DNA of 64,000 nt from IMG/VR virus record IMGVR_UViG_3300009177_000029, positions 105,064-169,063 of that record. One strand, 5' to 3'. Under the pieces are notes generated by a model. The model did no database searches. It worked only from the letters and a program-made list of their open reading frames with translations, and was not told where the DNA came from. Both the position numbers and the translations under genes were made by a program. Shown here piece after piece: positions 9,851-21,000 of the stretch. The DNA is from a virus (taxonomy: Duplodnaviria > Heunggongvirae > Uroviricota > Caudoviricetes). Positions within the stretch are counted from its first letter, which is position 1, and every line of letters starts with the position of its first letter.

Positions 9851-10302
9851 CAGTCCCTACCTAGCTCACGTTGAGTGTACAAGATCTCATACCTCTTGAG
9901 CAACCTCGCAGCGGCACCATTTCTCGGTAGGATGACGATTTCATCTTTACTATCTACACTGACAGAGAACCTAGGACGCGTACCAAGTGTAGTCCCAGCC
10001 TGCAACAATATGTTTTCGATTGCCGAGACACACTGTGCACGTGTTTGCCCATGGTTGTATATGTCCTGCACAGTACACTTTCGGATCACAGCCATCGCAG
10101 CATACTCAGCACAATGCTTTGCCCAAGTTTCCTGCAAATCAGCCGCTTTATTCATGATCTGGACGAAAGCCAACTCCGGCTCCGACAATCCAGATTCAGT
10201 CATACGATCCGCAACAGTTCTAACCTCAGCACTCATCCTCTGGATCCTGAAACTCAGCCGCAACAGCATCTTCCGACCACTGCATGACCGCAGCCTTGCC
10301 AA
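9850..10302 (-). CDS. hypothetical protein
   Basis: ORF track 150 aa. Confidence 0.35.
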   Translation of the reverse strand: MARLRSCSGRKMLLRLSFRIQRMSAEVRTVADRMTESGLSEPELAFVQIMNKAADLQETWAKHCAEYAAMAVIRKCTVQDIYNHGQTRAQCVSAIENILLQAGTTLGTRPRFSVSVDSKDEIVILPRNGAAARLLKRYEILYTQRELGRD

Positions 10303-15739: not shown

Positions 15740-15988
15740 ATGCTCCTCAAAGATGCACTGATCAAAGTGGGCTTTGCGTGTGCAGGCGGTGAGGTACGCC
15801 GCAAGTGTATGCAAGGTGCGGTCAAGGTCAACAATGTGCGTGTGGATGATTCCACGCTCACGTTGATCGATGGTAAACACAAGCTGACAGTAGGTCGATT
15901 CTCGTGTTACCTCGAAATCAAGCGCGGTGGATTGATTACCACCGTGCAATACCTCGATCCAGTCAAGATCGGGACAGTAAAGCTTTGA
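15740..15988 (+). CDS. S4-like RNA-binding domain protein
   Basis: LLKDALIKVGFACAGGEVRRKCMQGAVKVNNVRVDDSTLTLIDGKHKL matches S4 pattern (R/KLD..L...G...S..E..R.i..G.VkVNg..V.d....v..gD). Confidence 0.4.
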   Translation: MLLKDALIKVGFACAGGEVRRKCMQGAVKVNNVRVDDSTLTLIDGKHKLTVGRFSCYLEIKRGGLITTVQYLDPVKIGTVKL

Positions 15989-16027
15989 CGTCAGAGCCAC
16001 ACTCAAAAGGTGTGGCTTTTTGGCGTT

Positions 16028-16498
16028 ATGGGAAACCTCTACATCATGATCGGCGTTCCTGGCAGCGGCAAGAGCACAGAAGCGAAGCGCATCATGCGCA
16101 CGCATAGTGTGATTCGTGAACGCGTCGAGATCGTCTCCGCGGACACATACTTCATGAACGAGAACGGCGATTATGCCTTCAATCCCAAGGGTTTGGGTGA
16201 GGCGCACGCCGAGTGCTTCCGTGATGCATGTGACTACGCCACGCGTGGTGTGGACTGCATCATCGTGGACAACACGAACCTGACCAACGTTGAGCGAGCG
16301 CCCTACTATCAGTTGGGTGTGGCGTTCGGCTACAAGGTGCACATGGTGTGGGTGCATCCCGGCCTCACGTGTGAGGAGTTGGGCGCACGCAACGTGCACG
16401 GCGTCAGTGCGGAAAAGATTCGCACGATGTTCCAGCGGTTCGAAGGCGTATTGCCGCCGCATTGGAAAGTCCAACAGCACAACGTCAACGGGGTGTGA
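16028..16498 (+). CDS. P-loop polynucleotide kinase-like protein (T4 Pnk kinase-domain-like)
   Basis: Walker A IMIGVPGSGKST at N-terminus, IIVDNTNL (Pnk-like D-x-T-N) and small size. Confidence 0.6.
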   Translation: MGNLYIMIGVPGSGKSTEAKRIMRTHSVIRERVEIVSADTYFMNENGDYAFNPKGLGEAHAECFRDACDYATRGVDCIIVDNTNLTNVERAPYYQLGVAFGYKVHMVWVHPGLTCEELGARNVHGVSAEKIRTMFQRFEGVLPPHWKVQQHNVNGV

Positions 16499-16500
16499 CC

Positions 16501-16956
16501 ATGTTCGCCGATCTCAACGACCTTCACGACTTCTGTCGAGAGACGTTCTACTACATCCACGAGGGTGCAGGGCGTGCCGCGTACGACAACCCGTATCAAC
16601 CGGGTTGGGTCGTGAAGGTGCCTCGCAACCTCGCCACACACGAGACGGGCGGGCTCGGACAACAAGCATATGAGATCAGTGTGCTCAAGCGCATTGCTCA
16701 TCTTCCGTTCTGTCCGAAGTTCTGGGTCGAGTACATCCCGACCAAAGAGAACTTCTCGATTCCTGTCATCCACATGGAAAAGGTTGTGCCTCTCACGGGT
16801 GACGAGAAGGTCACGCATCTTCCGTGGTGGTGCAGGTACATCCACGATGGTGCGCAAATCGGCTGGACGAACAAGGGCGGAATCGTTCCGTACGATCTCG
16901 GCTACTTCGTGGAAGTCGAGGATCTAGTCCAAGCGGCAGCGGCGCAGCCACTGTGA
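16501..16956 (+). CDS. hypothetical protein (possible atypical kinase-like)
   Basis: IHDGAQIGWTNKGGIVPYDLGYF weakly resembles catalytic-loop/DFG region of small atypical kinases. Confidence 0.35.
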   Translation: MFADLNDLHDFCRETFYYIHEGAGRAAYDNPYQPGWVVKVPRNLATHETGGLGQQAYEISVLKRIAHLPFCPKFWVEYIPTKENFSIPVIHMEKVVPLTGDEKVTHLPWWCRYIHDGAQIGWTNKGGIVPYDLGYFVEVEDLVQAAAAQPL

Positions 16957-17091
16957 ACGCGACACAAGCCATTGCAGCAACCCTACTCCTCATCGGTCTC
17001 GTGCTGATGTTCATGTTCATGTTCATGTGGAGGTATCTGTGAAAAAGCTTCCTCCGGTGTTCCCAATCAAGTTCCCTGCACCACTGCCGAA

Positions 17092-17292
17092 GTGATGGGC
17101 ACGTTCAAATACTACACGACTCTTGCAGTCGTGAAGGAATGGCGTGTCTATCACTTGTGGGTTGACCGCTTCGGCGTGTTCAACCCTGTAGGTGTAGGCT
17201 TCGATCGTGACGGCTACTACATTCGTGTAGAGAAGTTCGAAGCGACCGAAGAACGTGTGGCATGTATGGCCACGTGGATTGCTGAGCGTTGA
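17092..17292 (+). CDS. hypothetical protein
   Basis: ORF track 66 aa. Confidence 0.25.
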   Translation: MMGTFKYYTTLAVVKEWRVYHLWVDRFGVFNPVGVGFDRDGYYIRVEKFEATEERVACMATWIAER

Positions 17293-17406
17293 CTCTGGGC
17301 AGGGCTTTGGAAGCGCTTGTGCCTCATATGCACAAGTATGACCGTTCGATTCGGTCCCGCACCATTCGTGTCATAGTGGCACGTACCAAAGAGAGGAAAG
17401 GTTTCT

Positions 17407-18129
17407 ATGAGCCAAGAGAAGAAGACCGAGACCGCCGCCGAGAAGACCAACAAGCTCATCCCCGAGATGCGCACGACGATGCTGCCCGCCATCACCGAGA
17501 AGCTCGGCGCGATCGTCGGCTTCGCGTTCGATGCGTTCCTGCTGCTCGTCTCGCGCGTCTGCGAAGACGTGTTCAAGATGCAGGCCGATTTCCAGCTCGT
17601 GAAGATGGTCATCGAAGCGCACAAGGCGCAGTCGAAGCTCGATGCCGAGACGATCAAGGATCTCAACCGTCGTCTCTCCGACATGACGTCGGCGCGTGAC
17701 ACGGCCACGTCCCTGCTCAACGCACGCATCGCGGAGCTGGACGATCTCAAGCGTCGCACGAGTGGTGCGCTGCTGACACTCGGACAGGTGTGCGGCGTCG
17801 GTGGAGGCACGCAGTTCGAGCCCGTGCACGTCACCCGTGGTGACCTGACGTTCGAGGAAGCGTTCTACCTCTTCATGGGACGCAAGATCGAGGCCATCAA
17901 GTGCTACCGTGAGCGCACGGGTCGTGGTCTCGCGGACAGCAAGGCGGCGGTCGAGGGCTACAGCCCGAACTCGAAGCTGTGGCAGGACATGAAGACGCTC
18001 ACCGAGCGCTGGGGCCAGGGCTGCTACGTCGCAACGAACCCGCCGAACAACGGCCGTGACCTCATGATGCAGGATCTGCGCGTCCAGCCCAAGGCGTTGA
18101 CGAGCACGTACGTCTCGCGACTCGGGTGA
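17407..18129 (+). CDS. protein with ribosomal L7/L12 C-terminal-like domain
   Basis: SD agaggaaagg; FEEAFYLFMGRKIEAIKCYRERTGRGLADSKAAVE parallels L7/L12 CTD [24 protein letters not shown]; N-terminal helical part. Confidence 0.5.
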   Translation: MSQEKKTETAAEKTNKLIPEMRTTMLPAITEKLGAIVGFAFDAFLLLVSRVCEDVFKMQADFQLVKMVIEAHKAQSKLDAETIKDLNRRLSDMTSARDTATSLLNARIAELDDLKRRTSGALLTLGQVCGVGGGTQFEPVHVTRGDLTFEEAFYLFMGRKIEAIKCYRERTGRGLADSKAAVEGYSPNSKLWQDMKTLTERWGQGCYVATNPPNNGRDLMMQDLRVQPKALTSTYVSRLG

Positions 18130-18136
18130 TCCACTC

Positions 18137-18214
18137 GGCACAAGCGGAAACGTTTGTGCCACTTATTGAGTAGAGGAGACGGGGCTGTTAAGCGGCTCCT
18201 CTACTCAATAAGTG
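18137..18214 (+). terminator. tandem stem-loops after gene 17407..18129 (7-bp stem, then 19-bp perfect stem)
   Basis: ggcacaa-N10-ttgtgcc; ccacttattgagtagaggag-N17-ctcctctactcaataagtg; no U-tract. Confidence 0.4.
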
Positions 18215-18245: not shown

Positions 18246-18560
18246 ATGAATGCAATCGTTCTCGCGTCGGATTCCCTCAGTCATCTTCACATCTTCATGT
18301 GCCTTGGTCTCGTGTGCATGGGCACGATGATCGCCACGATGGGCGGCGCCATGTTGGCATGGTCGATGCTTCCGTTCTCGCCCTCGGATGCCATGTCCGA
18401 GCCGAGCGAGTTCCATTCGACCGCGGCGCAGCAGCGGTATGCCGCCACGCAGTGGAAGCTCGCAAACGTTCGCGCTGAGCGTGCACGTCTTCTGCTGGAG
18501 CCCAGTGACTCCACTCTCGCCACGCGTATCGAAGGCGTGCGTTCCATCGTGGTGTGCTGA
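18246..18560 (+). CDS. hypothetical membrane protein
   Basis: HIFMCLGLVCMGTMIATMGGAMLAWSMLPF hydrophobic segment; SD agaagaggtg. Confidence 0.35.
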   Translation: MNAIVLASDSLSHLHIFMCLGLVCMGTMIATMGGAMLAWSMLPFSPSDAMSEPSEFHSTAAQQRYAATQWKLANVRAERARLLLEPSDSTLATRIEGVRSIVVC

Positions 18561-19393
18561 TGCATACCTATGCTGGTGAATCCCCGTCCAAGACTCTTAC
18601 GCGCATCCTGTATTGGGAGACGCTGAAAGAGCACTTGGGCCATGACTTCAAAGACTCTCACCTCGTATTGTGTGGTGAGGGTGGCGACGTGCGACAAGCA
18701 CAAGCGCTCAATGCAGGTCCGGTTACGGCCGTAGACCTCGACAAAGAGCGTCTCAACAAGGCCAAGCGTGCGTTCCAGCGTCAGCATGGAAATCTGCGCC
18801 GCCACGATTTCGTGCACGGCAACATGTGTGAGATCGAAGGCAAGTTCGCACACGTGTTGCTCGACTGGTGCGAAGTGGTGCGCCCCGAGACGATGGAACG
18901 CAGCTTGCGTATCCTCGATCGCACGCTTCGTGAAGGCGGCATGTTCGGTCTGTGCTTCTCGTATGGGATGCAAGGCCGACCACGCAAGGGTCAACCGCCC
19001 TTGTTCGCCTGCATCGAGGGCGAGACGCGTGAAGAGAAGGTCATGCGGCGTATCAAGTACGTCAATAGCTGGCTGCAACTTCACTGCGGAAAAGCTGCGC
19101 CTGCGATGGTGGGCGCGTGGTACTACGACTCATCGACGGCCGAGAAGAAGGGCTCGCCGATGGTCTACATGCTGTTCGACACCTCAAAGCCCTTCACTGG
19201 CATTCCCAAGCCGGTGTTGTGCAAGTGGAACGAAGAGCAGCGTGAACAGGAGGCACGTGAAGCCTTCGAAGATCACAAGGGCTCATACTTCGCAGACTCG
19301 TCACGCGTGTCTGACAGGTTCATGTTGAACCCGAAGAAGATCGGTGCGTGGCATGCGTGGCAGACCATGCGAGCGAGGAAACATGCGCCTTAA
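18554..19393 (+). CDS. putative class I SAM-dependent methyltransferase
   Basis: HLVLCGEGGD (motif I-like), VTAVDLDKERL (acidic end of beta2), VLLDWCE (motif IV-like); tentative. Confidence 0.4.
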   Translation: MLMHTYAGESPSKTLTRILYWETLKEHLGHDFKDSHLVLCGEGGDVRQAQALNAGPVTAVDLDKERLNKAKRAFQRQHGNLRRHDFVHGNMCEIEGKFAHVLLDWCEVVRPETMERSLRILDRTLREGGMFGLCFSYGMQGRPRKGQPPLFACIEGETREEKVMRRIKYVNSWLQLHCGKAAPAMVGAWYYDSSTAEKKGSPMVYMLFDTSKPFTGIPKPVLCKWNEEQREQEAREAFEDHKGSYFADSSRVSDRFMLNPKKIGAWHAWQTMRARKHAP

Positions 19394-20547: not shown

Positions 20548-21000
20548 GTGCTTCACAGACTGTCGTGAGACAGGCAGCTTGTAGCAGGCGAGGAGTATAG
20601 TTAGTGGTACATATAGCCTTCAATGGCGAGTGTAAAGTAAGATGGCGTCACACCACTAACGTGCCGCGACATAGTATGCTCTTGATTCTGCTACATGTCG
20701 TCAAGCGTATAGAGCGCGGGTACGCACCCACAATCTAACGAGGGTCGGCACACCATGCTTCGCTAATCAATCGGTTTCTCTGTCGAGAGTTGGCCGCCTC
20801 ACCCTACTTGTATTCATGTGGCCCACGCTGATTCCTTCTAGGTGCATAGAAGAGGGAGCGTGTCATAAAGCACCAATCCATCGTCAATCGATGGCGACTC
20901 CACACATGTTGTGGACAGTCGCATGGACGTTGAGAGGTTCCTCACACCCACCTCTCGCCTACTCAACGTCCATGCTAGTGTCTACACCACGAGGAAACAC

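Follow-up and report, generated by a model that had tools for sequence, protein, structure and literature searches.

The window analysed here is a 64,000-nucleotide stretch of a Caudoviricetes genome (IMG/VR record IMGVR_UViG_3300009177_000029, positions 105,064 to 169,063 of the record), and within it we examined a gene (17407..18129, + strand) whose 240-aa product carries a single α-hairpin unit resembling helices α4–α5 of the ribosomal stalk protein bL12 (L7/L12), the RNA elements that flank this gene, and an upstream gene (15740..15988, + strand) for an 82-aa protein resembling S4 RNA-binding domains. Both open reading frames (ORFs) exist as an earlier note made from this sequence had given them, the 240-aa product being identical to database protein P0001 and the 82-aa product being the same call as database protein P0002. 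The source of the window is a large uncultivated phage. The phage context is seen in the rIIA/rIIB, ribonucleotide reductase (RNR), NAMPT and ATP-dependent ligase genes, all of which are encoded in the window, and the rIIA protein shares only ~30% identity at best with those of deposited phages. Genes are directed leftward until ~12 kb and rightward beyond that point, and the L12-like and S4-like genes sit among a run of small rightward genes.

Related phage loci were compared for both genes: the L12-like gene is found in the window, L003, L061 and L062, and the S4-like gene in the window and L001. The constant elements of the four loci with the L12-like gene are a tRNA slot, a small hairpin, the L12-like gene itself, two further hairpins (hairpins 1 and 2) and a gene for a small membrane protein. 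Searches of 50,697 phage records, including tblastn with the whole 240-aa protein, returned no DNA or protein match to the region, to the whole 240-aa protein or to the 82-aa protein, and PADLOC gave no match for either the L12-like or the S4-like protein.

Architecture of the L12-like protein

The L12-like gene product is a lineage-restricted phage protein composed of three parts, namely an N-terminal helical region, a tether and a helical C-terminal domain. A HMMER scan of 1.84 billion cluster representatives yielded P0005, P0007 and P0009 as the only full-length homologs, at 34–41% identity; no further full-length members were found by a second, word-indexed search seeded with the family alignment, and a metagenome scan gave motif-level matches only, with no new full-length relatives. 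The gene shows purifying selection and synteny across the four phages.

The whole protein was folded with AlphaFold2 (AF2) from a shallow alignment of the four sequences, giving a mean pLDDT of 74. The N-terminal part (residues 10–121) is predicted to form long helices or a coiled coil (helices 10–33 and 35–121, pLDDT ~87–92), residues 122–147 are predicted to be disordered and would provide a tether of ~25 residues, and the C-terminal domain (residues 148–226), whose core is the one α-hairpin unit, is modeled as six helices over residues 149–226 with zero β-strands (pLDDT ~76–86 across residues 150–200). Comparison of the model with the PDB by Foldseek gave a best E of 4.6, bL12 not being among the matches, and the N-terminal 130 residues have no match in Pfam or the PDB. 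Hydropathy peaks at residues about 33–58, where the Kyte-Doolittle 19-residue mean reaches 1.4–1.9 across the four homologs. In the window protein the hydrophobic segment at codons 33–51 (LGAIVGFAFDAFLLLVSRV, 17503–17559) has a mean of 1.9, and a segment of this type, with a conserved central acidic residue, is kept in each of the four homologs. This segment is possibly a membrane anchor, or else the core of a helical hairpin.

Relationship of the α-hairpin unit to bL12 and EF-Ts

The unit (TFEEAFYLFMGRKIEAIKCYRERTGRGLADSKAAVEGY; 17848..17961, + strand, codons 148–185) is a single α-hairpin of the type seen in L12 α4–α5 and at the N-terminus of EF-Ts. Residues 159–185 match positions 11–37 of the 67 in the Pfam profile Ribosomal_L12 (PF00542) with an E of 0.0015 and 19.3 bits. 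The gathering cut-off of this profile, 25.9 bits, is missed by the query as well as by P0005 (24.9 bits) and P0007 (21.1 bits) and is passed only by P0009 (30.8 bits). A single-sequence search of the PDB with the 240-aa protein produced only two matches, both of them bL12 chains (E 0.26 and 0.56). When a C-terminal profile of the four family members was compared with PDB sequences, the top 13 were bL12 chains (best E 1.8e-4) and EF-Ts came after them (E 0.33). Alignment of the family with hhalign gave an E of 2.3e-5 and 41% identity to E. coli L12 residues 65–91, and an E of 2.1e-4 and 50% identity over 20 residues to EF-Ts residues 9–28. Additionally, phmmer connects the query to the repeat proteins described below with E values down to 4.6e-23, and those repeat proteins reach Pfam L12 at up to 5.8e-38. 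Judged by these alignments, the homology of the unit to helices 4–5 of the bL12 C-terminal domain (CTD) is genuine and beyond chance, and the unit is assigned as the hairpin that forms helices 4–5 of the bL12 CTD and helices 1–2 of the EF-Ts N-terminal domain.

The L12-aligned residues K160, I161, I164, K165, R168, G174, L175, D177 and K179 are invariant in all four family members, and their counterparts in E. coli L12 are, in order, K65, V66, I69, K70, R73, G79, L80, E82 and K84. Residues of α4–α5 in L12 contact EF-Tu and EF-G, according to Kothe 2004 as cited in PMC6110070. The similarity to L12 spans only about 27–38 of the ~68 CTD residues and not the whole domain, and the L12 sequence alignments stop after α5, none of them passing Pfam position 44 of 67. 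Because the model is all-helical and the alignments end after α5, the L12-like protein is not, as far as can be tested, a complete bL12 CTD. The likeness to the L12 CTD drawn in the earlier note therefore has to be divided: the homology to helices 4–5, the factor-contacting surface, stands, and the rest of the domain does not. That note had looked to a predicted α/β fold as the deciding check, and at face value the AF2 model is all-helical. Its description of the protein as a mimic of the L12 CTD was too strong, the resemblance being confined to a hairpin that is closer to a non-ribosomal repeat module than to bL12.

The unit in non-ribosomal repeat proteins

The HMMER scan retrieved 909 proteins at E ≤ 1e-3, and the matches other than the three full-length relatives cover query residues ~150–185 only, occurring two to six times per protein. 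These proteins are non-ribosomal and consist of tandem units of ~30–35 residues split by Pro/Ala-rich spacers, the unit following the pattern G-R/K-K-I-E-A-I-K-x-Y-R-E-x-T-G-x-G-L-K-E-A-K-D-A-V-E; many of them carry an N-terminal zinc ribbon together with a C-terminal membrane anchor. A unit consensus was derived from 407 repeat units in the first 150+ matches, and the phage unit agrees with it at all positions with conservation of 75% or more, including G158, K160, I161, A163, I164, K165, Y167, R168, T171, G172, G174, L175, K179, A181, V182 and E183. At Y167, which fits the repeat-unit consensus, bL12 has V or A.

In Pfam, the repeat proteins show a strong partial match to Ribosomal_L12 (positions ~10–37) and a match to the C-terminus of DUF6793. 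In NCBIfam, their matches are to TIGR00855 (L12) and PRK06771, both below the curated cut-offs, with a still weaker match to residues 1–30 of EF-Ts. The phage L12-like protein has no match to TIGR00855, and neither it nor its full-length homologs match DUF6793, a family for which a literature search returned no papers. Several of the repeat proteins are named 'ribosomal protein L7/L12', which looks like systematic misannotation. In bacteria the unit is fused to TIR immune-effector, S1 RNA-binding and NHL/β-propeller domains, to zinc ribbons and to C-terminal membrane anchors, examples among database proteins outside the window being P0159 (TIR), P0097, P0067/P0117 and P0012/P0066.

RNA elements and a micro-ORF flanking the L12-like gene

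A proline-rich micro-ORF (VKKLPPVFPIKFPAPLPK; 17039..17095, + strand) of 18 codons with a strong GGAGG Shine-Dalgarno sequence lies upstream of the L12-like gene; in the window its stop codon and the ATG of the following ORF (17095–17292) overlap. The encoded peptide, (V/M)KKLPPVFPIKFPAPLP(K/R), is kept in four phages (the window, L003 3462–3518, L001 10782–10838 and L062 560–631). The codon differences among the window, L003 and L001 are 6–10 synonymous versus 0–1 non-synonymous, and the micro-ORF is under clear purifying selection. Its product may act as a leader or stalling peptide or be directed at the ribosome.

The micro-ORF and the ORF that overlaps it are followed by a degenerate tRNA-like element with a CAT anticodon loop (17293..17363, + strand), which ARAGORN calls as tRNA-Met(CAT) and which scores 25.7 bits against the Rfam tRNA family (RF00005, cut-off 29). 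The D arm is absent and the acceptor stem contains two C–C mismatches; these features and the score below the Rfam cut-off led us to reject a functional initiator or elongator tRNA-Met at this position. In all four loci the L12-like gene is directly preceded by the tRNA slot (the window, L003 3523–3592, L061 1–68 and L062 638–712). In L061 this slot is occupied by a genuine tRNA (Rfam 61.9 bits, UUU anticodon loop), and in L003 and L062 by sub-threshold tRNA-like elements (19 and 22.8 bits). The acceptor stem and T arm are retained in the degenerate elements of the window, L003 and L062, and the T arm is 100% paired across the four loci, with compensatory changes in three of its five pairs. 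Between the tRNA slot and the Shine-Dalgarno sequence of the L12-like gene is a small hairpin (CGUGUCA-UAG-UGGCACG; 17367..17383, + strand), which has 7 bp in the window and is found in all four loci, with 97% of the cells paired and one fully compensatory pair (C–G/U–A).

Downstream of the gene, folding bore out the two consecutive stem-loops at 18137–18214 that had been described previously, one of them with a 19-bp perfect stem (jointly dG −58.1, z −9.2). Hairpin 1 (CGGCACAAGCG-GAAA-CGUUUGUGCC; 18136..18160, + strand) is a 10-bp stem with a GAAA loop (dG −17.9, z −5.7) and starts 7 nt past the stop codon in the window and 5–8 nt past it across the four loci. Its 24-nt sequence (CGGCACAAGCGGAAACGUUUGUGC / CGGCACAAGCGGAAACGTTTGTGC) is invariant in the four phages, with copies at L003 4291–4314, L061 ~826–849 and L062 ~1488–1511, while the flanking proteins are only 33–41% identical. 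A G–U pair in this hairpin points to a function as + strand RNA, and its invariance suggests sequence-specific recognition. Hairpin 1 is present as a single copy in the window. It was found neither in IMG/VR nor in a set of 185,579 bacterial and archaeal genomes, one per species; the two protein families and the back-translated micro-ORF were likewise without a match in IMG/VR, and Rfam has no family for hairpins 1–2.

Hairpin 2 (18160..18214, + strand), which contains the 19-bp perfect stem (dG −35.4, z −7.8), ranks second in length among the close inverted repeats of the window, and its counterparts in L003, L061 and L062 keep the position and differ in sequence and length in each phage. The longest such repeat, with 28-nt arms that are 86% complementary and a 27-nt spacer, is at 20907–20989. 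An intrinsic terminator was rejected for hairpins 1–2, as the downstream sequence GUAGGGUGUGACAAC is without a U run despite the strong stems, and a generic repeated intergenic element was rejected on account of their being unique in the window. We infer that the tRNA slot, the small hairpin and hairpins 1–2 are processing, stability or regulatory RNA signals.

The S4-like gene and its terminator

The S4-like gene (ATG start, GGAG 6 nt upstream) encodes a basic protein of 82 residues (14 K+R versus 7 D+E). It matches the Pfam profiles S4 (PF01479; E 0.004, 17.3 bits versus a cut-off of 22.8) and SYY_C-terminal (PF22421; E 0.002, 18.4 bits versus a cut-off of 27), in both cases below the cut-off, and has no match in NCBIfam. 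The best PDB sequence matches are to tyrosyl-tRNA synthetase (TyrRS) C-terminal domains (E 0.05–0.2), with eS4 also matched, and hhalign places the protein on residues 362–411 of E. coli TyrRS but at E 0.042 and a probability of 1%. The sole homolog is P0003 of L001, which is 80% identical overall and identical over the first 35 residues; the two genes differ by 14 synonymous and 8 non-synonymous changes in the first 56 codons, and residues 1–56 form the conserved part of the protein. A scan of the genome collection with the S4-like family gave no match. The AF2 model, made from two sequences, is unreliable (pLDDT 49.5), and its helix-helix-strands order is compatible with S4. Foldseek matches of this model to RelE/ParE and Ragulator, all at E ≥ 0.27, were set aside as meaningless given its pLDDT.

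The 82-aa protein shares with S4 domains and TyrRS C-terminal domains the pattern LxDaLxxxGfaxsxxeaRRxixqGaVkvNnxrv and a basic charge, and with TyrRS C-termini a subsequent G-x-x-x-L-x-x-G-R hairpin, but it differs from S4 domains in having neither the usual N-terminal R-L-D nor the S-R signature residues. The protein probably has an RNA-binding fold of the S4/TyrRS C-terminal type. The S4 match reported in the earlier note holds as a weak S4/TyrRS-C pattern; it lies below every curated cut-off and is not significant on its own.

The gene is followed by an intrinsic terminator (GCCACACU / loop / GGUGUGGC + UUUUU; 15996..16021, + strand; dG −24.6, z −5.95), which is conserved in L001 at about 10249–10275. 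The terminator overlaps a possible GTG start (16010) of the adjoining kinase ORF and is absent from the list of a consensus terminator scan.

Neighboring genes

The gene downstream of the terminator (16028..16498, + strand) encodes a P-loop kinase of the AAA_33 family (Pfam E 1.7e-15) that is polynucleotide-kinase-like, with PHROG matches to family 2071 (ATPase, E 2.4e-27) and family 505 (polynucleotide kinase, E 7.8e-13). A match of the kinase to the PADLOC CARF-PDDEXK-AAA model (E 6.9e-16) is probably generic domain similarity. On the far side of hairpins 1–2 lies the conserved partner of the L12-like gene, a gene for a small hydrophobic membrane protein of 104 aa (18246..18560, + strand), which is 60% identical in L003 and also follows the hairpins in L061 and L062. 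It is succeeded in the window and in L003 by an S-adenosylmethionine (SAM) methyltransferase gene (18554..19393, + strand; Methyltransf_25 recorded on an identical database contig), the L061 and L062 contigs ending earlier. Its match to PADLOC mad2 (E 3.9e-10) is again probably generic domain similarity.

A cluster of translation-apparatus genes, as implied by the earlier note, is not borne out by these loci. The S4-like gene is followed by its own terminator; an unrelated 73-aa ORF takes its place in L003, where the kinase and L12-like genes are kept; and the genes that follow it in L001 differ from those of the window, the kinase gene being missing from the ~0.75 kb between the S4-like gene and the end of that contig. 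The S4-like gene is separate and separately terminated, and its association with the L12-like gene is not a fixed one. In L062, the micro-ORF, the tRNA-like element and the L12-like gene are closely preceded by a GIY-YIG endonuclease gene (22–549, − strand), a hint of a hotspot for mobile or homing elements in this region.

Interpretation

We tentatively propose that the L12-like protein carries a tethered hairpin that binds a translational GTPase off the ribosome, in the RNA context described above and with the S4-like gene as a separate unit. The long N-terminal helix, of a type characteristic of coiled-coil oligomers, would mediate oligomerisation, and the oligomer would display tethered hairpins in the way that the stalk displays the L12 C-terminal domains. 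Of the partners of the L12-type hairpin, EF-Tu helix D is the best documented, and by analogy with L12 and EF-Ts it would be the most likely binding site; the outcome would be that the factor is sequestered, relocated or shielded during infection. The transcript would present a tRNA or tRNA-like element and the small hairpin before the Shine-Dalgarno sequence, and the GAAA hairpin and the long stem after the stop codon. RNase P might act at the tRNA-like element and RNase III at the long stem, with hairpin 1 serving as a 3′ protective or protein-binding element.

Several points weigh against this proposal. The link to a GTPase is extrapolated by analogy from a 35-residue module, and the conservation of the factor-contact residues may reflect the fold or another partner, because hundreds of bacterial proteins share the hairpin, among them zinc ribbon, membrane anchor, TIR, NHL and S1 fusions. 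We infer oligomerisation and membrane insertion only from helix length and hydropathy, and the processing roles of RNase P and RNase III are conjecture. A role in stability alone does not explain the total invariance of hairpin 1, and the S4 evidence for the 82-aa protein is wholly sub-threshold.

Equal weight is given to the possibility that the unit is a generic, promiscuous protein–protein adaptor hairpin unrelated to translation, in which case a coiled-coil, possibly membrane-anchored protein would bind another host or phage partner together with the downstream membrane protein. Such a role is consistent with the presence of the unit in more than 900 non-ribosomal proteins with TIR, NHL propeller, zinc ribbon and transmembrane partners, with a phage unit nearer to the repeat-family consensus, including Y167, than to bL12, with the hydrophobic segment at residues 33–51 and the conserved adjoining membrane protein gene, and with a neighborhood that has no translation genes apart from a decayed tRNA. 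However, in bL12 and EF-Ts, the only contexts in which its function is known, the hairpin is the element that binds EF-Tu or translational GTPases (PMC4739770), an S1 RNA-binding domain is found among the fusion partners, and the tRNA slot precedes the L12-like gene in all four phages. It is rather unlikely that GTPase binding extends to an off-ribosome stalk decoy, that is, an oligomeric and possibly membrane-tethered scaffold that would carry L12-type hairpins on flexible tethers and capture or relocate EF-Tu (or EF-G/IF2), with its mRNA controlled through the tRNA-like element and the GAAA hairpin by feedback binding or factor-dependent processing, and with hundreds of membrane-anchored or TIR- or S1-fused bacterial hairpin-repeat proteins acting as translation-factor tethers or sensors. 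A true stalk substitute, which would replace host bL12 on uL10 and reprogram ribosomes, is very improbable. Virus-encoded bL12-domain proteins are known, and ribosome fractions contained a single peptide from one of them, but the evidence for ribosome association is weak and tagged viral bL12 could not be purified with ribosomes (PMC6375957). In the phage protein, moreover, only 27–38 of ~68 CTD residues align and β-strands are not predicted, and Pfam and PDB searches reveal no similarity of its N-terminus to the uL10-binding domain; lacking such a domain, the phage protein therefore cannot occupy the ribosomal stalk in the manner of bL12.

A single functional module for translation or tRNA repair, made up of the S4-like and L12-like proteins, the kinase and the tRNA-like element, is improbable. 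All are encoded on one strand in a stretch of 2.4 kb, the kinase resembles polynucleotide kinases and the S4-like protein resembles a tRNA-binding domain of TyrRS, but the intrinsic terminator divides the S4-like gene from the others, and neither the arrangement in L003 nor that in L001 preserves the set. Chance resemblance of both proteins, to L12 and to S4, is hardly credible. Both single-sequence Pfam matches fall below the curated cut-offs and about 100 ORFs of the window were open to pattern matching, but for L12 the profile-level and transitive matches leave no room for chance. For the S4-like protein alone, a chance resemblance is a serious possibility, though not the favored one.

If the hairpin binds translational GTPases, these proteins would be a compact, four-member phage family that uses the minimal factor-binding element of the stalk off the ribosome, and would offer a first functional entry point to a very large bacterial family of 'L7/L12-annotated' repeat proteins (DUF6793-type, some TIR-fused). 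The domain assignment is corrected here to the hairpin only, in place of an α/β domain. The flanking RNA elements may hold more immediate experimental interest than the protein, the distinctive ones being the invariant 24-nt hairpin, the decaying tRNA with its retained acceptor stem and T arm, and the proline-rich micro-ORF under purifying selection.

Comparison with other L12-type systems

The phage protein shares with the bL12 CTD the α4–α5 pattern K-[VI]-x-[AV]-I-K-x-x-R-x-x-T-G-x-G-L-x-[ED]-[AS]-K-x-x-V-E and a corresponding preceding segment that ends in G (LFMG versus KAAG), and with bL12 as a whole a flexible tether joining an N-terminal self-association region, here a predicted one, to the hairpin. 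It differs in that strands β2 and β3 and helix α6 are undetectable and the equivalent of β1 is predicted to be helical. The phage protein is also twice as large as bL12 and has no N-terminal uL10-binding/dimerisation domain, and its gene is outside an rplJL context, with phage ORFs as neighbors. The N-terminal hairpin of EF-Ts (fragment 24 of Alva et al. 2015) aligns with IKCYRERTGRGLADSKAAVE at the 50% identity given above and has the all-helical context in common with the phage protein, whereas the other EF-Ts domains are absent and the alignment is statistically less well supported than that to bL12. Packing of a third helix as in UBA domains is only suggested by the model.

The repeat proteins are the closest sequence match, and the membrane anchor and Pro/Ala-rich or disordered spacers that are frequent among them are shared features. 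They differ in having 2–6 units each, compared with one in all four phage family members, and in having no counterpart of the phage N-terminal coiled coil or of the ~55 residues that follow the hairpin.

Among phage proteins, motif-level tblastn identified a single hairpin unit in Xanthomonas phage X1 WEM34523 (130 aa; L066 1914–2306; KVEAIKSFRAATGAGLLEAKQVVEHY), in Streptomyces phage Peebs gp3 (146 aa; L067 1207–1647; KIQCIKQLREKTGLGLKDSKDIVDAY) and in a 595-kb uncultured phage. The X1 and Peebs matches are weak (E 0.2–0.8 with a 62-aa query), and these two proteins, both annotated as hypothetical, are unrelated to the present family in flanks and length. The unit gene of phage X1 lies ~0.5 kb upstream of a gene for a CCA-adding/repair enzyme.

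In the survey of Mizuno et al. 2019 (PMC6375957), bL12 was the second most common virus-encoded ribosomal protein, its domain lying mostly inside larger phage polypeptides in contexts that vary among phages. The present protein has both the viral context and the significant Ribosomal_L12 profile match by which virus-encoded bL12-domain proteins are recognized. Like the proteins of that survey, it contains an L12-like piece inside a larger, otherwise unrelated phage polypeptide. The survey matches extend over about 60–70 residues, roughly the whole domain, as opposed to the hairpin only here, and tblastn of the whole protein against the 50,697 phage records shows no sequence similarity outside the motif. 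Phage proteins with an L12-like piece have thus been known since 2019, and what is new here is the hairpin-only form with a coiled-coil N-terminus.

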